The notes: generated from the sequence alone by a model not told the origin. Counted from the first letter of the stretch, positions 8,891 to 38,221 are shown. The stretch: DNA of 64,000 nt from a virus (IMGVR_UViG_3300011254_000489:23024-87023), one strand, 5' to 3'. Made by a program: numbers and translations.

Positions 8891-9052
8891 TTGCTTGTGA
8901 GCCTATTAGTTTATTTTTTTGCCGCCTTTATTTTGGGATTTGTTACTGTTTGGTTGGCTACTCCGCCATCAAAAGACACTTTCATAATCTTTGAAAGCGG
9001 TGAAGAATTAGATGAAATGTGTTGGGGCGGTCTAAGGAGAGGCCACCAATGA
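8891..9052 (+). CDS. Small membrane protein (53 aa, not in ORF track)
   Basis: TTG start; MLVSLLVYFFAAFILGFVTVWLATPP... one TM helix; stop overlaps ATG of next gene (ATGA). Confidence 0.55.
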   Translation: MLVSLLVYFFAAFILGFVTVWLATPPSKDTFIIFESGEELDEMCWGGLRRGHQ

Positions 9053-9897
9053 AAATTAGAATTGTAGAGGTTTCTCCTAGAGACGGTCTACAATCGCTAG
9101 AAGAATTTGTTCCTACAGAAGTCAAAAGAGATTTGATTAACTCTCTTTACGGTGCAGGTTTCTCTCATGTAGAAGAAACAAGTTTTGCTCATCCTAAATT
9201 TGTGCCGCAAATGGCTGACGCAGAGCAAGTGTACCAGAAAGGTTCCGTTTTAGTTATGAATAATAGAGGTTTTATTAGGGCTAAAAAAATAGGAGTAGAG
9301 AAAATTAATATTGTTTTTTCTCCTTGTGAAACTTTTAACTTAAATAATATGGGCAAAACTAGAAACGAAATAGTATTGATGTATAAAACATTCATGGATA
9401 GAGTACCAAAAGAAAATGTTAGAGTCTATTTATCTATGGCTTTTGGTAGTCCTTACAGTGGTTCTTTTTCTCCAACTACGATTCGTTCTTGTATTAGGGA
9501 TGCTAAGATGTTTGGAAACACTGTAGTATTTTCCGATACTGTGGGGGTAGGAACTAGAAACGAAGTTGGCTTATTTGCTGAAATGGCTTTAGAAGAAGGG
9601 GTCATCCCCGCCTTACATTTACACCATAAGGGAGAAGAAGAAAGGGCTATATCTTTAGTTAGAGCAGGATTATTTTCGGGGATAAAAGAATTTGATAGTA
9701 GTATAGGTGGCTTAGGTGGCTGTCCTTTCGTTGAAGATAGTGGCGGTAATTTATCTACGGAAGCCCTCGTAGGACATTTAGAAGCATGGGGTTTTGATTG
9801 TGGAGTAAAAATAGATGATTTGACCCCTGCTAAAAAAATCGCACAATCCATAAAAAATGCCCAAAATGAAAAAATGGGCCGCATGACTCACCCCTAA
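9049..9897 (+). CDS. hmgL: Hydroxymethylglutaryl-CoA lyase (DRE-TIM metallolyase), auxiliary metabolic gene
   Basis: EVSPRDGLQ, SF.HPK.VPQMADA, DTVG.G, LHLH metal ligands, GLGGCPF....GN.STE catalytic Cys loop; start refined to 9049. Confidence 0.9.
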   Translation: MKIRIVEVSPRDGLQSLEEFVPTEVKRDLINSLYGAGFSHVEETSFAHPKFVPQMADAEQVYQKGSVLVMNNRGFIRAKKIGVEKINIVFSPCETFNLNNMGKTRNEIVLMYKTFMDRVPKENVRVYLSMAFGSPYSGSFSPTTIRSCIRDAKMFGNTVVFSDTVGVGTRNEVGLFAEMALEEGVIPALHLHHKGEEERAISLVRAGLFSGIKEFDSSIGGLGGCPFVEDSGGNLSTEALVGHLEAWGFDCGVKIDDLTPAKKIAQSIKNAQNEKMGRMTHP

Positions 9898-16209: not shown

Positions 16210-17115
16210 TTACCACCAATCCGATAGTTTCTTTTCTTTAGTTTTTATGCTTGCAGTGTCCCATTCCATTGCTTTGTAAACGGGTTCTGCTTTCTTAATT
16301 ACTTGGTCTGCATAATGTGACCAATCGGGAGAATACTCTCTTAGTTCGTCAAAGGTTCTTCCTGCAACATAGGTCGCCTCTACTTGTTTTCCTGTTAGCG
16401 GGTTAGTATAATGTCCTGCCGGTTTGCACTTGATGAAAACATAAGAGTCAATATTAGTAGGCAGATTTAGTTTTTCTACTCCGAATAATATTGCCGAATT
16501 ACCTGCTCCGAATACCGGCTTCTTACCTTCTTTAGTAGTGAAGGTTGTAAACTCAGCCGCACACTTAGAACAGAAATTTGTTCTCTTACCTTGTGTGAAT
16601 TTGTGCTTTTTCTGTAAATCAAACACAGAATAGCCCTTACCACAAGAACATTTTACCTTAAAGCGTTCTTCCTTAAACCGACTTCTTTTGACAATAGATT
16701 CAAAATCTATTTCCCCTTTCAGTACAGTAGAATACTTTTGATGTAGGTATTCGTTTATTTCTTCAAACGAACATTGGTCTACCCACATTCTAAGAACAGT
16801 GCTTTGAATATCTCTAGCAAAACCTGTTTCGGAAATTTTCTTAGCAGTAAATCCTGTCATTACAAACTTGGGTTCGTCCAACCAAACACCATCTAGCCAA
16901 GATACAAGACCTACATTTCGGTTCTTAGTAGTCCCTACTCCTAAACTAGAATAGAATTTCTCAAACTCCAATACTACAGGGTGTTGTTCTAGACCAAGTA
17001 CATTAGGAAAGGATTCTCTAACATGGTCGTTAATTTCTTCTATTGCTACCTTTGCTTTTTCTACTGAATCGCATTTAATATAAATAGAATCTGTGTGTCC
17101 ATATACTACTTTCAT
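16210..17115 (-). CDS. polB: Family B DNA polymerase, C-terminal subunit (motif C and thumb)
   Basis: YGHTDS motif C at N-terminus, LEFEK.Y, KNR, G; ends K.LSDWW (PIP-box-like). Confidence 0.9.
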   Translation of the reverse strand: MKVVYGHTDSIYIKCDSVEKAKVAIEEINDHVRESFPNVLGLEQHPVVLEFEKFYSSLGVGTTKNRNVGLVSWLDGVWLDEPKFVMTGFTAKKISETGFARDIQSTVLRMWVDQCSFEEINEYLHQKYSTVLKGEIDFESIVKRSRFKEERFKVKCSCGKGYSVFDLQKKHKFTQGKRTNFCSKCAAEFTTFTTKEGKKPVFGAGNSAILFGVEKLNLPTNIDSYVFIKCKPAGHYTNPLTGKQVEATYVAGRTFDELREYSPDWSHYADQVIKKAEPVYKAMEWDTASIKTKEKKLSDWW

Positions 17116-17835: not shown

Positions 17836-18659
17836 TGTTTCATCTCCTCAATCTCTTTTTGAAAGTGTATTGTCTTCAACCTAACCTCTTCTTTAAATTG
17901 AATTTCATCAATTTTACCCCAAAGTTTTTCAGCGCATTCATCAATCATTAAAATATTCATTAGGTCATATTTAGTTAAGTCGCTAAAATAATATAGAGTT
18001 ATTTCTAATAATTTATTCATAGAAACATGATAATTAGGGTTAAGTATCCTACTATGTGCGCCCGATTCTACTAATTTAGAATACAGTATTTCATGATGAG
18101 GAAAAAATCCCTCTTTAATTTTAAAGTAATTTTTAATTTGCTTTTGTTTGTGTGCGAACTTATATTCAGTTTCATAATCTAAAGCATAGAATACATATTT
18201 TTTATCGGGATGATTTTCGGGTAAGTGGTATTGTTTAGTATCCTGTTCTGTAGCAGTAAAAAAACCGTGATTGTATATTTGGGCTTTATTACTAATCCAA
18301 CACCAATATTCAAGCCCGTATAGATTTTCGCTTTCTTTATGACAGGTTTTACATAACATATGTAAATTACATATGTCATCGGAACCTTCTACCGATTTAG
18401 CAAGAATATGCGCTCTCTCTAAGTTGGTGTTTGCACTAACTCCACAAGCCATGCAACCTTGATTTATTCTAACACCTTTCTTGTCTTTAATAAGGCAATT
18501 AAGATAACTTCTATTTAAAATATGACTTAAAGAACAATTTTCCCAATATTGATAAATCGCATGTGGCTTTGGAGCAATGTTTTTTCGGTGAGTAGTTACT
18601 AGTCTACCCATAATATCAATTTCTCCTTTTTCTAAATGTCTTGTATTCAATTTATTCAT
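17832..18659 (-). CDS. HNH endonuclease, putative homing endonuclease
   Basis: CMACG...ERAHI...GSD...NL..LC..CH; visibly more AT-rich than neighbours. Confidence 0.8.
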   Translation of the reverse strand: MNKLNTRHLEKGEIDIMGRLVTTHRKNIAPKPHAIYQYWENCSLSHILNRSYLNCLIKDKKGVRINQGCMACGVSANTNLERAHILAKSVEGSDDICNLHMLCKTCHKESENLYGLEYWCWISNKAQIYNHGFFTATEQDTKQYHLPENHPDKKYVFYALDYETEYKFAHKQKQIKNYFKIKEGFFPHHEILYSKLVESGAHSRILNPNYHVSMNKLLEITLYYFSDLTKYDLMNILMIDECAEKLWGKIDEIQFKEEVRLKTIHFQKEIEEMKQ

Positions 18660-20419
18660 ACTTCCATCTCCCTTGCCTTAAATGCGGCTAATCTAATTGC
18701 CTCTCTTGCGCTCGCAGTAATGCTAGCGGCTAGGTCTTTGTTACTCCAACCGAACCCTCTAAAAGCAAGGATTCCGTAGAACGAAGCCATCAATCTCTTG
18801 ACGGCCATTTGGTTGTTATTCCACTTGACATACTCTTCTTTATCGTCACCATCTCTAGCAACCTTCATCTTCTTCTTGTAGTCGTTTCTCAAGTCCTTGA
18901 GAGCCAACAAAGAGCGAGGGAGAAGGCCCAATTCATCAGTCTTGAAGTATAGCATGTTAGGCTCATAGTCCACCGATACAGGGCGTAGATTTTGTGGTGT
19001 ATTCAAATCAGCACCAAAAGCAGTGGGTATTTCGCTGATGGTTTCAAAACTGATGTTCCTAGCGATAATCATTGAAGGATAGAGGCCCGCAAAGTCAAAC
19101 GCCGCCACATTAAGATGTAGTCCATTCGTACCTTCATCCAATGGATTGTAAATCATAGCACCCGAATAAGACAAAGATGCACCGCACTTTTTACATTCTT
19201 TCAGTTGTTTATCTTTAGGATTTTCGTATCCGCAATCATCACACTTCTTTGTTTTCAATCTAACACCTGTCTTACATTTCCAACTAGCATTGTTCATAAA
19301 GTAAATACTACCCATGTGGGAAGCATAGAAACAAGACTCAAAAGGAGCCACTAGCAATCTTTGTAAGGATATAATAGCCTCACTGCAATGGTTTTCCTCG
19401 TCTATCTTTCTTAGTAATTCTACATCTATGATAGTGTATTGTAAATAAGAATATTTATCTTCTAACCAAGCCCTTGAATAAAACTCATTAGGGTCAGTAA
19501 ATTTAGTTTCAATATATTTACCTTCACCGAATAGTGTTTTAGAAACATAGTCCAAAGCAAGACTTGGTAGTGTTCCTCTTTGTGCATCATTCCATTGTCG
19601 CTCAAAAGCAACATCAAGATTTAAGTTAATCATACCTTTAACGGGTTGTGCAATAGGAGAATAGCCTCCACTTTTAGTAAACTTTAGACCGTCTAGACTT
19701 TCTTCTATTCCATCAATAACATTCATTGGAGAAATACTTCTAGGGTCAATTTCATTAGCAATACATCGTCCTAATAGTTTAGGTAGGTCAAACTTAAGAC
19801 CAAACCAAGCAACCATCATATCGGGTTTTTCTTCCGAAAGAAAAGCAATAAACTTAGTTAGCATTTCCGCTTCGGAAGTACTGTAATCAAGAACGCTAGT
19901 ATAACCATCTACTGATGGCTTAGTAACTTTAGCAAACGATTCTTTAGGATACCATACCCACACATGGAAGTTTTTAGAGAAGTTATCGTAAAGAGCAATA
20001 GCAGTAATCTTACCATCATGTACTCCGCCTTGCATCCATTCCATATCCCAATAATACTTCTTTAGGGTGTACGGTTTCATAACATCTAAAGAATCAACTG
20101 CGTAGCGATTAACTAATGAAACATCTGCTTCATATGTCATATCACCTAACTTGGGATGCTTAAATGGCTTCCTAGCACTATCTACATGAGATGGCTTCTC
20201 GTAGTAAACTCGCTTTAGTTTAGTACCATCAATAGAAAACCATTCGCCCTTTACATAGGAAAAGTCCCTTCTTAGCATACCTACACTATATTGAGCAGGT
20301 TCTCTGTAAGAATCCGGTACATAAAAATAAGGAGCAAAGTCTACTAGTTCTGTAGACAATTCTCCTTGTTGGTTTCTATTAGATGTGTATATTGTATTTT
20401 CATAATTAGCAATTATCAT
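18656..20419 (-). CDS. polB: Family B DNA polymerase, N-terminal subunit (3'-5' exonuclease, motifs A and B)
   Basis: WDMEW, AWFG.KFD, Y...D exo motifs; DFAGLYPS motif A; Q.AVK.LMASFYG motif B. Confidence 0.92.
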   Translation of the reverse strand: MIIANYENTIYTSNRNQQGELSTELVDFAPYFYVPDSYREPAQYSVGMLRRDFSYVKGEWFSIDGTKLKRVYYEKPSHVDSARKPFKHPKLGDMTYEADVSLVNRYAVDSLDVMKPYTLKKYYWDMEWMQGGVHDGKITAIALYDNFSKNFHVWVWYPKESFAKVTKPSVDGYTSVLDYSTSEAEMLTKFIAFLSEEKPDMMVAWFGLKFDLPKLLGRCIANEIDPRSISPMNVIDGIEESLDGLKFTKSGGYSPIAQPVKGMINLNLDVAFERQWNDAQRGTLPSLALDYVSKTLFGEGKYIETKFTDPNEFYSRAWLEDKYSYLQYTIIDVELLRKIDEENHCSEAIISLQRLLVAPFESCFYASHMGSIYFMNNASWKCKTGVRLKTKKCDDCGYENPKDKQLKECKKCGASLSYSGAMIYNPLDEGTNGLHLNVAAFDFAGLYPSMIIARNISFETISEIPTAFGADLNTPQNLRPVSVDYEPNMLYFKTDELGLLPRSLLALKDLRNDYKKKMKVARDGDDKEEYVKWNNNQMAVKRLMASFYGILAFRGFGWSNKDLAASITASAREAIRLAAFKAREMEV

Positions 20420-32165: not shown

Positions 32166-32381
32166 TCAAGCCTCCATACCATTAACACTAACCATGTTAG
32201 CAAATTCCCATTGATGGAACATTTCATGTCCACCAATAAAACCACCTGCTTCTCTAATAGGCCCAATAAATTGTGCAGAACAAATTTGACAATACACCAT
32301 TACTATTCTTTCATCAATATGTGAACCTACTTTTGTTTCGTAAGAAATTATTTTTCCTATATCTTTTTCTGTATAAGTCAT
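32166..32381 (-). CDS. C2H2-like zinc-finger protein
   Basis: CQIC...F...H...H. Confidence 0.55.
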   Translation of the reverse strand: MTYTEKDIGKIISYETKVGSHIDERIVMVYCQICSAQFIGPIREAGGFIGGHEMFHQWEFANMVSVNGMEA

Positions 32382-32923
32382 TCTTCTTCCCCTCCAATAA
32401 AACCTTTATTCATGTGTTGAATTCTTGTTGAGAATTCGTCAATACTTTCGTAGGTAATTATCTTTAGTAGTTCGGGTAGTTTATTACTCCAAACTCCATA
32501 ATGGTCATACCCACCTAGAACATAGGCGGATTCCATCTTGGCTCCCCAAATTCTAATTGTTCTCCAATCAACCCCACTGAAATAAGCACTACCGAAAGGA
32601 TGCGTATGTATCCAACACTTAATCGGTAACTTCATCCCTACAGGGTTAATTTGAAAATCAACATAGCCCGATGAACCACTAGAAATATGTAGATTCCAAT
32701 TAGCATCAACTACTACCTGTACTTCTAAGTTAGGCAATATCACTGTAGACGCTTCCCAAATCGCTGAATGGAATGTGGTGTGTTTTATTATTTCTTCACC
32801 GTCTTGGTTTATTAACATCTCATCAAAGACTCCTTGAATGTAAGGCTCAACTAAACCTCTTAATTCCTGTAGATGTTTCGCTTTTAGCAATTCAACTGAA
32901 TTCATTGTTGTTCTACTACTCAT
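32378..32923 (-). CDS. JAB/MPN+ (JAMM) metallopeptidase
   Basis: E(VQV)...WIHTHP..SAYFSGVD, i.e. E-HxH-x7-S-x2-D. Confidence 0.88.
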   Translation of the reverse strand: MSSRTTMNSVELLKAKHLQELRGLVEPYIQGVFDEMLINQDGEEIIKHTTFHSAIWEASTVILPNLEVQVVVDANWNLHISSGSSGYVDFQINPVGMKLPIKCWIHTHPFGSAYFSGVDWRTIRIWGAKMESAYVLGGYDHYGVWSNKLPELLKIITYESIDEFSTRIQHMNKGFIGGEEE

Positions 32924-33095
32924 TTTAAATTCCTCCATTTAAAAAATAACCAAAATATAGAAGTGAAAGGACTCCTGCTGAAAACAAAAAACAAGTATAA
33001 CAAGTGTAAATTAAAAGTATTCCAGTAGTAAATTCCTCTAAAGTTAGTTTTTTATTGTTTTCTGTTTCTATATCATATACTCCCATATTATCACC

Positions 33096-33650
33096 TCAAA
33101 CATTTATCACGGCAAAGCCGTTTACTTCTTCATCATTAAACCAACGCTGAATCCATTCAGCACCCATTCCTGCAATAGCAACCTGTAAGAAATGTACTCC
33201 TTCTGTAGAGCCATCCCATGAATCACCTTGACAGGAAAAACTACCATCCGGCCCTGCTAGCATAGTATCATACATTTTAGGGTCGGCCTTGTAGGATACA
33301 TAGGCGGCGTTCCTTGCTTGGGAGCGAAGGTCTAGCCACGCTATGTTTGAACGGTATAGCATCCTTCGTGCGGATAGATTATCCACACAACATACTACCA
33401 AATCATATCCTTGTATTTGCCCGTCTGTTAGGATAGGGAATTTACTTGGACTGATGGGATACCTCTTTTGTAGGGCCATCACTTTCAATTCACCCACTTC
33501 ATCTTCCGTGAAGTTTTGGTAAGGTAGGTTCTTTGTATCTACGGTGTCGGGGTCACTTACGCTAATCGTGTAAAGGCCCGTCTTATCTAGTAGTGGGATT
33601 AGAAAACTTCCAATTCCACCGGCTCCAATTATCAATATTTTTCTATTCAT
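33096..33650 (-). CDS. ThiF/E1-like ubiquitin-activating (adenylation) enzyme
   Basis: IGAGGIGS, D.D.V...NL..Q, G..K, VCCVDN..AR. Confidence 0.88.
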   Translation of the reverse strand: MNRKILIIGAGGIGSFLIPLLDKTGLYTISVSDPDTVDTKNLPYQNFTEDEVGELKVMALQKRYPISPSKFPILTDGQIQGYDLVVCCVDNLSARRMLYRSNIAWLDLRSQARNAAYVSYKADPKMYDTMLAGPDGSFSCQGDSWDGSTEGVHFLQVAIAGMGAEWIQRWFNDEEVNGFAVINV

Positions 33651-33909
33651 TTTTATTCCTCCAATCTTCAAATGCTGATTGTGATTCTTTCATGGTATAT
33701 GACATACTTATCATACTAGCAAGTCCTCTGTATAATTCATCTTGAATTGACGCATCAAACTGAGAAAACAGTGGGGCTAACATCATTCTAGTTGCCGTCA
33801 CATAACAATTACATTCACGACAAACTCTATCTTCAAACTTAGTTAGAATCGGTTGAGGGTTATTCCCTTCCCAAGTCTCCATTTCTTTTTCACATATTTT
33901 ACATTTCAT
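33643..33909 (-). CDS. Zinc-finger protein
   Basis: CKIC...GNNP.P...C..CN motif. Confidence 0.6.
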   Translation of the reverse strand: MKCKICEKEMETWEGNNPQPILTKFEDRVCRECNCYVTATRMMLAPLFSQFDASIQDELYRGLASMISMSYTMKESQSAFEDWRNKNE

Positions 33910-33910
33910 A

Positions 33911-34735
33911 TTACCATATCCATTGTGTTCCTTGTCCTTTTATTTCGGACTCTGTTTTACCTACTGTTCGTAGGAGTTTTTTTGTTGTATCTCTACAAGT
34001 GCGACTAGTCACACCTACAACATCACCAACTTCTTTTTGAGTTAGTTGTTTAAATTCGCAAAGATTTGCTATGTAGAGTATCCCCGCTACTGCGCTTTTA
34101 TTTAGAGTAAGAGTACGCATTTCGTATTCCCTCTCAAAGAAGGAAAGTAACATACTACAGGTACTAGCAAAATACCTGTCCCCTAATTGAAGGGAATACT
34201 TCTCTACCAAAGAATCAAGAGATTGAATAAAGACTCCACTATTCTTAAAATGCTTTGAAATCTTCTTGGCTACTTTAGCAACCAACCTTTGGTTAGAGCC
34301 GTACTCAGCACAGACTTCTTTTAGAGTGAAGGGCAGATTTCTTTCCCTTAATACATAATACACCAAAGCACTAGCCCTATCTTCATAAGTAGATTGACTA
34401 AATATCCCTGCTCTAAAACAAGTCATGTAGGCGTTTTCTACTCTCTCCATTTGGCTCTTTGAATTAGTCAAAGAAGACATTAACATTTTAGAGAAACCCA
34501 AACCTACATCAACATGGCTTCGCTTACCCCTTTCGTATCTATGAACGGGCCTAGAGCCTAGAGTTCTATCTCCATGCCTAATAATTTCTCCATCATGAGT
34601 AAATAGAGAAACCGTTTGGTCAAAGGGTTCAGTTACTACAATCAACCCACAGTCTTGACATTCCTTCTCGCCCATGTATTCGTTGTACGAAAAAACAGTA
34701 CTGTTACATTCAGTACAATTAATCAAGGTTCTCAC
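33911..34735 (-). CDS. tfb: Transcription initiation factor B (TFB/TFIIB) homologue
   Basis: N-terminal zinc ribbon CTEC...GE..C.DCG.V; two cyclin repeats; C-terminal HTH TQKEVG.VVGVT..T. Confidence 0.88.
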   Translation of the reverse strand: MRTLINCTECNSTVFSYNEYMGEKECQDCGLIVVTEPFDQTVSLFTHDGEIIRHGDRTLGSRPVHRYERGKRSHVDVGLGFSKMLMSSLTNSKSQMERVENAYMTCFRAGIFSQSTYEDRASALVYYVLRERNLPFTLKEVCAEYGSNQRLVAKVAKKISKHFKNSGVFIQSLDSLVEKYSLQLGDRYFASTCSMLLSFFEREYEMRTLTLNKSAVAGILYIANLCEFKQLTQKEVGDVVGVTSRTCRDTTKKLLRTVGKTESEIKGQGTQWIW

Positions 34736-35936
34736 TCTCTACGGGTTCTACATATCTTTCTATGTGGTTAGCATAAGCAATTTCCAACCTACTGTTATCA
34801 TCCACCAATTCAAAATTTATTCTATGTGAAGCAGAAGGAATACTCTTCATGGTAGAGACTCTTTGTTTAGTCATTCTGTCATTAATACAGACCAACAATC
34901 TAGTTACTAGTTGGTCATGTATAGGAGAATTGTTTTGAAGGTTATCAACACAAACTCCGTTCCATTTGTAGTCTCCTTCAAGAGATAAGAAAGCAGTTGA
35001 TACCAATTGCCTACCCGACGATTTCCTATTACTATTCCAAGTGAATAACCAATCGTTATCTATTCCTTTGACTAGTAGATATTGTTCGCTTGTTTCTTTA
35101 TCGCTCAACATCTTGACTTTATTCTTATACTTAGCAAGCGTTTGCTCTAACAAAATTTCTGCCCTATCTTCTATTAATTTAGAAGTCCTATTCTGTTCTA
35201 AAAAGGCAATCATAACATCGGAGTCCGATTCAGTTATCTGCTTACCCATCAATAAGAAGTACAATTTTTGCGGCGAAAGAAATTTCCAAGAACCTCTATT
35301 GTGTCCATGTAAATAGTGTCCTAAATACTTAGACAAGTCTTTGAATGAAATAGTACCCCAAACAGAATCACTTATCTCTATGGCTACTTTATCATCACTT
35401 ATTTGTTTAGCATTTAGTCTAACATTAACTCTTCTCCCGTTATTAAAGAAGTAATAGGGTACTCTATTTTCAAGAACATGGCTAATCTCGTAAGGAGTAT
35501 TGCATATCCTGTAGAATAACATCATCGTTTCCGACCTACTCATGTCATTATTTACACGGTAGAGGAATCTAGATAGATTGTAGAAAATCTCTCTCTTAGT
35601 ACCCTTCAAACCATTAATAGAAATTGGTGTTTCGTTGGTTACTATAACTGAGAAGTCGTTTATTACAAATTCTAGATAGTCCTTTGGACTATTAGTTATG
35701 TCTCTCATCATTCCTTTAATTTTTTCAGCAAAAGAGACTATTAAAGAATCTAGTGAGGTATTTACTTGGTTCGCCCTACCATTAAAGTAGTGAGTAACAG
35801 TACTTGCATGTCCATTCCGTATAATTTGAACAGTTCCCCGTATAATTTTCTTCTCTCGGTACTGGCCGTCACTGTGTAAGGGGAGTTCTAGGCTTTTTTT
35901 CTCTGTATTATAATTTATAATTGTTGATTCGGTCAT
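34719..35936 (-). CDS. Hypothetical protein (405 aa), C-terminal conserved-looking Cys motif, possible E2-like
   Basis: GVCVD....SP..DQ...R.L...ND near C-terminus; located inside the E1/JAB/Ubl cluster. Confidence 0.5.
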   Translation of the reverse strand: MTESTIINYNTEKKSLELPLHSDGQYREKKIIRGTVQIIRNGHASTVTHYFNGRANQVNTSLDSLIVSFAEKIKGMMRDITNSPKDYLEFVINDFSVIVTNETPISINGLKGTKREIFYNLSRFLYRVNNDMSRSETMMLFYRICNTPYEISHVLENRVPYYFFNNGRRVNVRLNAKQISDDKVAIEISDSVWGTISFKDLSKYLGHYLHGHNRGSWKFLSPQKLYFLLMGKQITESDSDVMIAFLEQNRTSKLIEDRAEILLEQTLAKYKNKVKMLSDKETSEQYLLVKGIDNDWLFTWNSNRKSSGRQLVSTAFLSLEGDYKWNGVCVDNLQNNSPIHDQLVTRLLVCINDRMTKQRVSTMKSIPSASHRINFELVDDNSRLEIAYANHIERYVEPVESENLD

Positions 35937-35940
35937 ATTA

Positions 35941-36099
35941 TCACATCATTCTCATTTTTGTTTTGTAATTGTTTACACATTCTTCATGTGCTTCTATTTT
36001 CATATCTTGTGGAGTTAGTAAAGAGCCTCCACAAACTCTGCATTTTGTCGCTATCTTGCGACCTCTTGAATTGTCTGTATAGTTTGGATTGTTTGACAT
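35941..36099 (-). CDS. Small zinc-finger protein (52 aa)
   Basis: CRVCGG.L...H..C. Confidence 0.55.
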   Translation of the reverse strand: MSNNPNYTDNSRGRKIATKCRVCGGSLLTPQDMKIEAHEECVNNYKTKMRMM

Positions 36100-36101
36100 A
36101 T

Positions 36102-36392
36102 TTAACCCTCTAATTTATTTACTTCGTGGTATTTAACATATACATCAAAATCTTTAATGTATTTTGCTAAGTATTGGTTAAACCCAATAGTCACGGCTTC
36201 ATCAATATCAAAAAGATAATTCTTTAATTTAGAATTTAAGAAGAAGACTTGTTCTTTTTCGTCGTCAATCAACAACGAATGTCGTAGTGCCGTCTCAACG
36301 AATAATTGCCCCTCCACCGATAACATAGGTAGAAGTGACTTAACTACTGCTCTACAATGAGCAAAGTTACGATAGAGGGGCATAAGCACCAC
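36102..36392 (-). CDS. Hypothetical protein
   Basis: ORF in operon. Confidence 0.5.
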   Translation of the reverse strand: MVLMPLYRNFAHCRAVVKSLLPMLSVEGQLFVETALRHSLLIDDEKEQVFFLNSKLKNYLFDIDEAVTIGFNQYLAKYIKDFDVYVKYHEVNKLEG

Positions 36393-36429
36393 GGTTTAAG
36401 GGATGGTTTTATTCATCAACAAGGGGGGT

Positions 36430-36636
36430 TCAACAGGAACCTCCAACAATAGCAGGAGTCAAGTCCACGCTACTAACAGTATCCCAATTGATTGTGTTAA
36501 TGTCTTGGCGGCTTACCATCTCACCATCAACGAAAACCCAATGTGTGGGGTGTGTTTCAATTTGTTCTACAACCTTCTCTACTGAGAGTTGCAATTCAGT
36601 GTGTCCTGTTTCATTTAAAATCGTTAGTGTAATCAT
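36430..36636 (-). CDS. Ubiquitin-like beta-grasp protein (SAMP/ThiS/MoaD-like) with C-terminal GG plus SC extension
   Basis: 68 aa; VFVDG and V.L.PAIVGG terminal strand typical of ThiS/MoaD/SAMP; GAGGTGA RBS; E1 and JAB nearby. Confidence 0.75.
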   Translation of the reverse strand: MITLTILNETGHTELQLSVEKVVEQIETHPTHWVFVDGEMVSRQDINTINWDTVSSVDLTPAIVGGSC

Positions 36637-36637
36637 T

Positions 36638-37798
36638 TTAATTCACCTCTGTTTTGTTCACCTTGTCATGACTATTTAAGCCATCCCCTTTGTTAGCGGA
36701 AATCCAAACGGTTGCTTGTCTTTTTGTCACTTTTTCGCTACCGTCATATCCTAAGTTTTTCATGTATTGGATTTGGTTACTTGTTGCCGCTTCCATACAT
36801 TTAGTTAATGTTTCAATTTGCCTTTGGGATAGAGCATTACCCCAATTAGAATTCTTCAATTTGATTTCTATATCCCGAAGGAAGTTAGTTGTCCAATCAT
36901 CAAAGGGAAGATTATTCTTCACTTCGTAGTAATTACTAATCCCAAAGAATTCCATCTTATTAGAAATATTGCGAGAATATTTCCTCTCACGAATCCTATC
37001 CACTTCGGCCATTTTCTTTTCCATAATAGCATCTTCCTCAGTAATCATAGCAATGGTTTCTCTTGATGAATAATAAAAATCATCTAAATCCTCTAACAGT
37101 TTTTTGTTGGGGTAGCCCTTAGTATTAATTTGTGCTTTGTGGTTATCGGGATGATTCCATCGCCATACAATAGAAGCCATTTCTCCATCCATAGCCCTTT
37201 TACGAATATAGGTCTTAGGACGATGAGTATTTAGTTTCTCATCCCAATAGAACCCTTTACTTCTAACATTGACTCGCAAATCTAAGTCCTTAATCTTGTT
37301 GAATTTAAATTCAAAGATTGAACCATTAGTAGCCCACCAAGCAGTTTTCTTCATGCCTTCAATCCGAACATTAATCCATTGGTCAATCATTTCATCAGTA
37401 ATGTATTCATCCTCAAGACCTGTCGCCTCTTTGATTGCTCTAAGGATTAGATAGGAATTGATGTGGTCGCTACCAACACATTCCTTTCTACCGTTCTCAG
37501 TATTCTCTATTTCAAAATGGTAAATAATACGATGGCCGCATAGACAACTACCATATCCCATGCTAGAATTCATAACCCACAGAGGGGCATCTTCGGCTCT
37601 ATCGCCACCATATTGTGACCACCAAACATTACCTGTAGCCAACCACTCTAATTTAGCATCGTCGTAATTGTCTGCATTAGAAAGGCGTGTAAGAGCCTCT
37701 TTCAAAGCCCTATCCCATCGTCCATTTCCTAGTCTTCTTTTAGGTTGAATAGTCTCTCTTTCGTAACTTAATTCAATTGCTTCTCTCGGTATATCCAT
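36638..37798 (-). CDS. Hypothetical protein with CxCG..I...I.N...VGSxH zinc motif
   Basis: Motif seen directly; C-terminal AT..Q..Y...LG...TK..A...I helical motif. Confidence 0.6.
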   Translation of the reverse strand: MDIPREAIELSYERETIQPKRRLGNGRWDRALKEALTRLSNADNYDDAKLEWLATGNVWWSQYGGDRAEDAPLWVMNSSMGYGSCLCGHRIIYHFEIENTENGRKECVGSDHINSYLILRAIKEATGLEDEYITDEMIDQWINVRIEGMKKTAWWATNGSIFEFKFNKIKDLDLRVNVRSKGFYWDEKLNTHRPKTYIRKRAMDGEMASIVWRWNHPDNHKAQINTKGYPNKKLLEDLDDFYYSSRETIAMITEEDAIMEKKMAEVDRIRERKYSRNISNKMEFFGISNYYEVKNNLPFDDWTTNFLRDIEIKLKNSNWGNALSQRQIETLTKCMEAATSNQIQYMKNLGYDGSEKVTKRQATVWISANKGDGLNSHDKVNKTEVN

Positions 37799-37799
37799 T

Positions 37800-37970
37800 T
37801 TAATTCTCTCCTAATTCGTATTGTTCTTTCTTTGGTAGACATTTGTTATGTTTGACTTTCAAACCGTCTCTGCTAGGTATAATCCTAGCACATTGTTTAC
37901 AGGTAGCCAATGTGCAATGGTCGCAATCGGTTACTGTCTTAGTGCTATCACATGCTCCACAAGTACTCAT
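37800..37970 (-). CDS. Binuclear zinc-finger protein (56 aa; C2-C2-C2-HC)
   Basis: MSTCGAC-x8-CDHC-x4-CKQC-x13-HNKC; not in ORF track; coupled to neighbours. Confidence 0.6.
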   Translation of the reverse strand: MSTCGACDSTKTVTDCDHCTLATCKQCARIIPSRDGLKVKHNKCLPKKEQYELGEN

Positions 37971-38221
37971 TCCATCATCTCCCTGTCTTCTTTTTCAAAC
38001 TTATGCGCTTCACTAAGATAACTATTCAAGATGAAGTCCATCTTCTCTTGTAGTGCTTCAATGACTCCTGCAATTGTTCTTCGCTTTAGACTAATCCAAA
38101 GTCTATGGTAAGTATTCAATACCACCTTAACTCCATCATCTTCTCCTTGCGTTATAACAATGGGAGGCATATCCTCACTGTCTATTATTCTAAATTCTAC
38201 TTTTTCATTCATGTTTATCAT
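37967..38221 (-). CDS. Hypothetical protein
   Basis: ORF in operon. Confidence 0.5.
   Translation of the reverse strand: MINMNEKVEFRIIDSEDMPPIVITQGEDDGVKVVLNTYHRLWISLKRRTIAGVIEALQEKMDFILNSYLSEAHKFEKEDREMME

Follow-up and report, generated by a model that had tools for sequence, protein, structure and literature searches.

Conjugation of ubiquitin-like proteins (Ubls) in prokaryotes is known from the SAMPs of archaea and, more recently, from the bacterial antiphage systems Bil, Bub and CBASS, the latter with Cap2 and Cap3. A stretch of viral DNA of 64,000 nucleotides (IMGVR_UViG_3300011254_000489:23024-87023), referred to below as the window, with positions counted from its first letter, contains a block of genes for a Ubl pro-protein, a ThiF-type E1-like enzyme, a metalloprotease of the JAB (JAMM) type and a protein of 405 amino acids (aa) that is a candidate E2 (Table 1). 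Open reading frames (ORFs) and family scans identify the source of the window as a group-B-type magrovirus, i.e., a Poseidoniales virus. Magroviruses infect Marine Group II archaea, a group that ranks with the surface ocean's most abundant microbes. On the basis of folds, motifs, conservation, synteny and a predicted interface between the Ubl and the 405-aa protein, all established in silico, group-B-type magroviruses probably encode their own ubiquitin-like protein-modification cascade, with a full E1-E2 route and a new E2-like protein. If true, it would make these the first viruses of prokaryotes, as far as our searches reach, in which a full system for Ubl conjugation is encoded.

In its logic, the Bil system (BilABCD) is closest to the viral set. 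As described in excerpts of one report (PMC10557695), the Ubl of Bil is pre-processed by a JAB deubiquitinase and works with an E2 and a multidomain E1 consisting of an inactive adenylation domain (IAD), an active adenylation domain (AAD) and a CYS domain. Candidates for all four roles are present in the viral set, but the viral E1 is a single domain of 184-191 aa without the inactive adenylation and CYS domains, and, unlike the E2 of Bil, the E2-like domain forms the last third of a three-module protein of 405 aa and lacks sequence similarity to E2s. Furthermore, the viral set is encoded by a virus and not by a defence island, and its genes are interleaved with those for a homologue of transcription factor B (TFB) and a zinc ribbon. 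PADLOC provided no Bil-specific match for the viral Ubl, JAB or 405-aa protein. Curated models do not place the viral set in the Bil, CBASS or UbaA family. In type II CBASS, Cap2 combines E1 and E2 in a fusion, and its substrate for conjugation is the CD-NTase itself; there is no separate Ubl, and the system serves the defence of the host.

In its setting, the SAMP/UbaA/JAMM system of Haloferax is closest. It has in common with the viral set the archaeal background, a small ThiS/MoaD-like modifier ending in Gly-Gly (GG), a MoeB-type E1 and a JAMM protease. However, the SAMP system has no E2, and neither the zinc sites nor the usual catalytic Cys are found in the viral E1. The JAMM-trimmed sulfur carriers likewise share a small beta-grasp protein, residues after GG that are removed by a JAMM protease, and an E1-like adenylase, but they operate with a rhodanese-bearing E1 and sulfur-accepting biosynthetic enzymes, none of which is found in the viral genome, and, unlike the viral set, they have no UBC-like partner. 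E2s of eukaryotic viruses, such as I215L of African swine fever virus (ASFV), use ubiquitin and E1 of the host, whereas this virus would bring modifier, E1 and protease along. The 405-aa protein also shows a likeness to FANCL, in which an ELF domain and a double RWD domain place several UBC/RWD-like modules in one chain, similar to the three modules in the model of the viral protein. The FANCL modules, however, are non-catalytic and end in a RING, whereas the viral protein, in which there is no RING, carries an invariant Cys.

In the literature, as far as main texts are concerned, we found no report that mentions a ubiquitin-like system for magroviruses or for archaeal viruses of other kinds. 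The words ubiquitin, ThiF and JAB are absent from the main texts of PMC5434244, PMC10160649, PMC11706807, PMC8651126, PMC10768690 and PMC7318539, whose supplements and figures may list such annotation, and also from the ICTV profile of the Aoguangviridae.

In the Ubl pro-protein, G65 and G66 are followed by the variable dipeptide SC. Searches of metagenome protein sets yielded 507 homologues at E <= 0.01, and motifs were counted on the best 120, which are 66-99% identical. The motif AI[VI]GG is found in 118 of these 120 sequences. Behind it, 18 have no residues, 5 have one and most have two, whilst one has four and another a longer extension. The two-residue tails vary in sequence (CY, NY, SL, NL, NV, SC and others). 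Counted by locus (n = 85), the tail measures two residues in 66 cases and one residue in 2, it is missing in 16, and the motif is absent in one; thus, the motif is kept in 84 of 85 loci. An invariant Gly-Gly followed by a short and freely varying tail is, at the level of sequence, the signature of a processed ubiquitin-like modifier.

The fold of the 68-aa protein, earlier described as beta-grasp-like from the sequence, was checked as well. An AlphaFold2 (AF2) model, based on an alignment of 38 sequences, reached a mean confidence (pLDDT) of 88.6 and displays the order strand-strand-helix-strand-strand-helix-strand, as in beta-grasp proteins. The top Foldseek matches are exclusively ubiquitin-family proteins and variants thereof (ubiquitin, NEDD8, ISG15 and others), with modest scores (E 3.6e-3 or worse, TM-score 0.38-0.47), as expected at 68 residues. 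The best fold matches also include MoaD, ThiS, CysO, TtuB, Urm1 and the Ubl of Bil (8tyz_B), which is largely consistent. The later strands and the AIVGG end resemble ThiS and MoaD. In Pfam, no family was matched at E <= 1, and nothing relevant was found in NCBIfam, PHROGs or PADLOC; the sole NCBIfam match, to an unrelated lipid kinase, is weak (E 0.053). Thus, both the beta-grasp fold and the conservation of the GG in homologues, on which the first-pass annotation had relied, were borne out. The Ubl contains no Lys or Arg after R43, and trypsin would therefore leave a remnant of 23 residues on modified targets, so that the diGly proteomics proposed earlier would not work with this enzyme. Another feature of the protein is an unusual, invariant His-rich surface, comprising H12 in the first hairpin and H29, H32 and W33 after the helix.

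For the JAB protein, 458 homologues were found in metagenome protein sets, 30 of which were aligned. The complete JAMM motif (E ... HxH-x7-S-x2-D, formed by E72, H111, H113, S121 and D124) is present in 30 of 30 sequences, in agreement with the initial reading, although the protein stays below the Pfam threshold. A profile of the family matches AMSH-like JAMM deubiquitinases (AMSH-LP) at E 1.1e-3, over the motif only. The N-terminus of the protein is variable. It had been argued that the two extra residues of the Ubl make the JAB necessary. This explanation is incomplete: in 16 of 85 loci, the Ubl stops exactly at GG, and all 16 retain JAB, E1 and the 405-aa protein. Hence, the JAB must do more than trimming, which points to a second task such as deconjugation. 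JAMM-trimmed tails after GG also occur in sulfur carriers (QbsE/QbsD) and, therefore, the tail alone does not separate conjugation from sulfur transfer. The C-terminus of the JAB is a conserved acidic tail with the consensus GEEE, in which E186 is found in at least 90% of the 30 sequences. GroEL and a homologue of the 386-aa protein (Table 1) from another locus, L025, likewise have acidic ends (KEE in both), and these C-termini may represent a shared C-terminal signal.

The E1-like protein matches the ThiF family PF00899 with 60.5 bits (E 1.7e-16), above the cut-off of 28.1. Its conserved start is probably an ATG at 33650, which would reduce its length from 191 to 184 aa. Residue conservation was counted on 72 homologues derived from the loci. 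As claimed before, the nucleotide-binding motifs are intact: G16, G18, G19 and G21 of the GxGGxG motif, D40, D42, K63, D97, N98 and R102 are invariant in 72 of 72 sequences, which covers the nucleotide and Mg residues, including the acidic residue behind strand 2, the Lys and the Asp of the DN motif that binds Mg. A profile of the family matches UBA5, UBA3, MccB, Cap2, Uba4 and MoeB at E 1e-8 to 1e-7. The best NCBIfam models are ThiF and MoeB, all far under their cut-offs, and the UbaA model scores 33.8 bits against a cut-off of 450; the E1-E2 models of PADLOC cover just the Rossmann part. The length of ~185 aa is constant across the family, for which 995 proteins were found at E <= 1e-5 among 8,000 candidates examined. 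The best 120 of the matches are without exception proteins of viral type, 181-198 aa long, and thus stop short of the closest relatives in cells. C147, invariant in 72 of 72 sequences, is the sole candidate Cys, and neither a further Cys nor a second CxxC is found downstream of it. As a canonical catalytic Cys, it was rejected, since it aligns with a zinc-ligand Cys of UBA5 instead of the crossover-loop Cys. Given these features, the viral protein is best called a minimal adenylating E1, with adenylation being its predicted activity.

Short ThiF-like genes matched by the viral E1 were also encountered in other tailed viruses, i.e., in 29 records of Bacteroides crAss-like phages, 10 of uncultured phages, and in the Moraxella phages Mcat17 and Mcat22. 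In Bacteroides phage crAss001 (MH675552.1 77742-86050), gp76, annotated as ThiF, directly follows gp77, annotated as 'metalloprotease domain containing protein', in the replication module. Pairs of E1 and protease may be more widespread in tailed viruses.

The 405-aa protein belongs to a small and confined family, for which a search of 1.84 billion proteins gave 197 representatives at E <= 1e-3. Cys329 is its only conserved Cys; it is found in 90 of 91 full-length representatives, and the lone exception is truncated. The AF2 model, based on 45 sequences (pLDDT 84.5), shows three modules, each consisting of a helix, four strands and a helix. Residues 250-400 form a helix, four or five strands and, beyond Cys329, two helices. 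Cys329 is located right after the strand 324-328 and ten residues ahead of the long helix 339-351. In E2s, the catalytic Cys sits between the sheet and the following helix, which is where Cys329 lies in the model; a residue-level equivalence of Cys329 to an E2 Cys was not obtained. The highest Foldseek probabilities were found for UBE2N and Ube2V1 with weak values (E 0.058-0.11), which are probably depressed by the size of the 405-residue model. In both of two runs, E2, UEV or RWD folds account for about 40 of the 50 VIA rows, and whole-chain alignments were obtained with UbcH5, Ubc13, Ube2K, the E2 of Cap2, the E2 of Bub and the E2 of ASFV (7wlh_B). The weak UBC-like matches include non-catalytic domains of UEV, RWD, FANCL-ELF, Mediator and kinetochore proteins. 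A feature search of the protein atlas with residues 245-405 gave no usable match among the named clusters, and a fold search of BFVD with the model retrieved only three homologues with 24-27% identity and no named protein. For P0352, a divergent representative of the family, no locus was found in IMG/VR.

A complex between residues 61-405 of this protein and the mature Ubl (residues 1-66) was predicted using our own alignments. The interface score (ipSAE) amounted to 0.77, 0.78 and 0.80, vs. 0.00 for all three controls; the runs agreed in at least 94% of the contacts, with a pLDDT of the partners of at least 88. On the side of the 405-aa protein, residues 329-338 (the Cys with its loop), 341-363 and 235-262 contribute to the interface, as do a few positions in module 2; it includes the invariant residues D341, R346, N352, R258 and L262. 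On the side of the Ubl, it consists of the first hairpin and the C-terminal tail (residues 60-66), including the invariant residues N8, G11, H12 and T13 as well as the tail. The prediction supports binding of the Ubl to the 405-aa protein in a pose like that in E2~Ubl complexes. The candidate E2 of the first-pass annotation is thus backed by its UBC-like model, by the invariance of Cys329 and by the complex predicted with the Ubl, but it finds no support at the level of sequence.

The genes of the block, all of which proved to be real ORFs whose core members are kept in relatives, were compared among 88 IMG/VR loci, 80 found with the Ubl and 8 with the E1, some of them on the same contigs. The genes are arranged as 84-aa gene, (386-aa gene), Ubl, (96-aa gene), the 52-aa zinc ribbon (Zn52), 405-aa gene, TFB, (88-aa zinc finger or glycosylase), E1, (71-aa gene), JAB, (GroES) and GroEL. 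Ubl, Zn52 and E1 are each present in 85 of the loci, the 405-aa gene and TFB each in 86 and JAB in 84, and the missing core genes fall at contig ends. Moreover, the six genes also occur in a divergent, rearranged lineage, in which Ubl and Zn52 are located ~4 kb upstream of the remaining block, whilst the 84-aa gene (directly upstream of the 405-aa gene), the 405-aa gene, a short TFB, E1 and JAB are contiguous; the Ubl in this lineage still ends in AIVGG followed by DY, V or QN. The co-occurrence that had been suspected is thereby corroborated. In the search anchored on the DNA ligase, for which the best 80 of 544 relatives were used, 31 loci had at least 9 kb of upstream DNA. Zn52, the 405-aa gene, TFB, E1 and JAB were found in 31 of these 31 loci, and the Ubl in 15; for the remaining 16, the position at which it would be expected is past the 10-kb flank. 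These loci contain no informative gene absence on which a test of covariation could be based. The gene set is a fixed core of the lineage, with strong co-occurrence and without informative losses.

In IMG/VR, 217 stretches encode the Ubl. A collection of 'phages', which seemingly lacks magrovirus records, contained no match for the Ubl or the JAB. A scan of cellular genomes for the Ubl retrieved only three contigs (L094-L096) of a metagenome-assembled genome labelled Altibacter sp. EAC109, a flavobacterium; all three show the magrovirus gene order and are probably mis-binned viral contigs. In some lineages, the Ubl is separated from the 405-aa gene by ~2.8 kb through an insertion as in L025 (10654-12525), where an ORF of 623 aa, by eye presumably ribonucleotide-reductase-like, and one of 126 aa lie between the Ubl gene and the genes for the 96-aa protein and Zn52.

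From these data, we infer adenylation, thioester formation, conjugation and possible targets as follows. A beta-grasp Ubl of 66 residues would be made, usually with two extra, variable residues after the invariant Gly-Gly, and this tail would be cut off by the JAMM metalloprotease. The same enzyme probably also takes the Ubl off conjugates, as it is kept even where the Ubl has no tail. The minimal, single-domain ThiF-type E1 would adenylate the C-terminal Gly of the Ubl, and the UBC-like C-terminal domain of the 405-aa protein would accept the activated Ubl on Cys329 and hand it over to targets. Candidate targets are the viral TFB, which would be co-transcribed, the 52-aa zinc ribbon and host proteins. 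That pro-Ubl, JAMM protease, minimal E1 and an unrecognised E2 family residing in a three-module protein form a complete, self-contained cascade that tags host or viral proteins during infection, in a family of marine archaeal viruses abundant across the globe, is proposed more tentatively, with confidence just short of even; the proteins tagged might then be the TFB encoded alongside or factors of the host that are bound for the proteasome. In this reading, reduction of the E1 would go so far that a direct attack on the adenylated Ubl by the Cys of the E2-like domain may occur. The machinery is carried here by the virus itself, as a core feature of its lineage, and virus-run tagging, if true, would be a novel level of host takeover for a pair of virus and host that is ecologically major and uncultured. 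The system also offers a minimal E1 in which the usual Cys and the zinc sites are missing, and an E2-like domain that is invisible to sequence searches, which would bear on the origin of E1-E2 cascades. With components of 66, ~185, ~186 and 405 residues, the system is small enough to suit reconstitution.

Several observations weigh against such a cascade. In canonical E1s, the NLxRQ motif contributes an Arg, and this residue is replaced by Tyr51 in 72 of 72 viral sequences (the Lys three residues ahead of it, Lys47, is invariant). The E1 has neither CxxC zinc sites nor a CYS domain, and C147 corresponds to the second Cys of the zinc-binding CxxC of UBA5, the first position being Ser, and not to the catalytic Cys. 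The Pfam model Prok-JAB scores 14.4 bits on the JAB (E 0.036) against a cut-off of 25. Among the C-terminal domains of the 405-aa family, 0 of 45 match UQ_con or Prok-E2 at E <= 10; the whole genome, searched at E <= 1, lacks matches to UQ_con, Prok-E2_A and Prok-E2_B; and two profile searches of the PDB with the family retrieved no E2. The 20 residues before Cys329 contain no conserved His-Pro-Asn (HPN) motif; the conserved positions upstream of the Cys are Q310, V312, T314 and G327. As to the predicted complex, the calibration of the ipSAE, in which 58 of 80 solved complexes attained the same mark, as did 2 of 110 mismatched pairs, holds only roughly with our own alignments as input, and a resemblance to E2~Ub complexes already solved could have inflated the score. 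Finally, since the genes were never found apart or absent in the lineage, synteny does not distinguish functional coupling from membership of a conserved core.

With all this considered, conjugation in any form is still highly probable. Without an E2, it would take the form known from the archaeal UbaA and SAMPs, where the E1 alone activates and transfers the modifier. The 405-aa protein would then be a non-catalytic receptor for the Ubl, a scaffold or the main substrate (UEV/RWD-like), perhaps linking the Ubl to TFB. The absence of an HPN motif and of any sequence match to E2s fits such a role, as do the weakness of the UBC-like matches, some of which are to non-catalytic domains, and the position of the 405-aa gene, which abuts TFB with an overlap of 17 bp; moreover, the predicted complex speaks for binding and not for catalysis. 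However, the Cys that is invariant in 90 of 91 sequences occupies an E2-type place in the predicted interface with the Ubl tail, and the E1 has no clear catalytic Cys with which to act alone. We regard E2-independent modification as unlikely.

Sulfur transfer, with QbsE/QbsD/QbsC and CysO/Mec+/MoeZ as precedents, would require that the JAMM-trimmed Ubl is adenylated, thiocarboxylated and used as a sulfur donor for a cofactor, tRNA or small molecule. The Ubl resembles ThiS and MoaD, with MoaD, CysO, ThiS and TtuB among its fold matches, the best NCBIfam matches of the E1 are ThiF/MoeB models, far below their cut-offs, QbsE is a known case of a tail behind GG that a JAMM enzyme removes, and host enzymes could supply missing steps. 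The first-pass annotation had seen no sulfur-transfer clients in the window; in fact, the four families searched (Rhodanese; ATP_bind_3, of the TtuA/NcsA type; MoaE; ThiG) are absent from the whole 87-kb genome, whereas each control search gave matches in 11 to 14 of the 14 reference genomes. Also, the E1 of 191 aa has no rhodanese domain, the Ubl has a dedicated predicted partner with an invariant Cys and a UBC-like fold, and the module is located among transcription and replication genes, all of which makes a sulfur carrier distinctly improbable. Even less probable is a counter-defence or decoy function, in which the viral JAB, E1 and Ubl strip or divert the conjugates of a host Ubl pathway, either SAMP or a Bil-like defence, instead of building viral ones. 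It would account for the retention of the JAB where the viral Ubl needs no trimming, and bacterial Ubl systems do act in antiviral defence, as stated in excerpts of two reports (PMC10557695; PMC11601596), but it leaves unexplained the strong conservation of all three, Ubl, E1 and the 405-aa protein, and the joint conservation of the predicted interface.

Table 1. Features of the candidate ubiquitin-like gene block and of other parts of the window.
Feature	Position	Strand	Remarks
JAMM/MPN+ metalloprotease (JAB), 186 aa	32378..32938	-	E72, H111, H113, S121, D124 invariant
53-aa hydrophobic ORF	32925..33086	-	2/88 loci; doubtful gene
Minimal ThiF-type E1-like adenylating enzyme, 191 aa from TTG start	33096..33671	-	PF00899; predicted activity
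C147 of the E1	33231-33233	-	Invariant Cys
88-aa zinc-finger protein	33643..33909	-	Lineage-specific, 14/88 loci; not core
Viral TFB/TFIIB homologue, 274 aa	33911..34735	-	N-terminal zinc ribbon and cyclin repeats
405-aa protein, candidate E2	34719..35936	-	Three alpha-beta4-alpha modules in model
C-terminal module of 405-aa protein, residues ~250-400	34719-35189	-	UBC/UEV/RWD-like fold in model
Cys329 of 405-aa protein	34950-34952	-	Single invariant Cys
Zn52, 52-aa zinc ribbon	35941..36099	-	C20, C23 ... H38, C41; core, 85/88 loci
96-aa protein	36102..36392	-	Between Ubl and zinc ribbon; tblastn 34/88 loci; poorly conserved
Ubl pro-protein, 68 aa	36430..36636	-	Predicted beta-grasp; ends IVGG-SC, invariant ..AIVGG
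G65 and G66 of the Ubl	36439-36444	-	Followed by variable dipeptide SC
386-aa conserved protein	36638..37798	-	Directly upstream of Ubl in 74/88 loci; moves in some lineages
56-aa zinc-finger protein	37800..37970	-	Lineage-specific, 9/88 loci; not core
84-aa conserved protein	37967..38221	-	81/88 loci; beyond coordinates of first-pass annotation
GroES-like ORF, 71 aa	31624-31839		4-bp overlap with GroEL start; recurs in 54/88 loci
Split family-B polymerase	18656-20419 and 16210-17115		Family scan
HMGL-like gene (HMG-CoA lyase type)	9019-9897		PF00682, E 1.9e-18

Every gene of the finding is carried by the minus strand, at the coordinates assigned before, and the co-orientation of Ubl, E1 and JAB within 4.3 kb holds, with 4,259 bp from JAB to Ubl. 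From JAB to the 84-aa gene, neighbouring genes overlap by at most 29 bp or are separated by gaps of at most 37 bp; because of this tight packing, the block would fit a single transcription unit. That it wraps around a viral TFB was also confirmed: TFB is present in 86 of 88 loci, always between the 405-aa gene and the E1. The four Cys residues of its zinc ribbon (C7, C10, C26, C29) are invariant in 71 of 71 sequences. The protein matches the NCBIfam TFIIB model PRK00423 at E 2.9e-13 in two stretches, with 49.6 bits below the cut-off of 384, and the Pfam TFIIB repeat at E 4.1e-4, below threshold. In the ICTV profile of the related virus YSH_150918, a TFB is labelled; this Poseidoniales virus is also the named source of one of the Ubl homologues. 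Of the zinc fingers that had been counted among the parts of the system, only the 52-aa zinc ribbon belongs to the core, and those of 88 and 56 aa occur in 14 and 9 of the 88 loci, respectively. The 386-aa protein keeps C85, C87, H89, H94, the residues S110-D111-H112 and many Trp in 54-60 of 60 homologues. An atlas search with this protein yielded only clusters of hypothetical viral proteins and no known family; being metal-binding and encoded next to the Ubl, it could belong to the system.

The window corresponds to bases 23024-87023 of an IMG/VR virus record of 87,023 bp, which is rated complete by CheckV. It contains the replication set of a tailed archaeal virus, with replication factor C (RFC), an ATP-dependent ligase and a UvrD-like helicase according to ORFs and family scans, and family scans also revealed a terminase and GroEL with a GroES-like ORF. 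Genes for tRNA-Leu and tRNA-Arg are present as well. A split polymerase, GroEL and these two tRNAs are given as marks of group B magroviruses in excerpts of an earlier report (Philosof et al., 2017; PMC5434244), and the assignment as group-B-type is based on the agreement with these marks. The same excerpts state that the viral chaperonin is expected to need no GroES, whereas the ICTV profile of the related Aoguangviridae lists a cochaperonin GroES, naming TFB, GroEL/GroES and HMG-CoA lyase. The HMGL-like gene in the window agrees with the auxiliary gene given in that profile.

Short contigs of a relative with 95-99% identity were obtained from the run X1, which is labelled METAGENOMIC RNA-Seq, although that it represents RNA is a guess, and which is uninformative on expression. 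These contigs cover parts of the E1, the junction of TFB and the 405-aa gene, the region from Zn52 over the 96-aa gene to the Ubl, and the 386-aa gene. One contig of low depth links 33593 with 33671 on opposite strands and is probably an assembly artefact.

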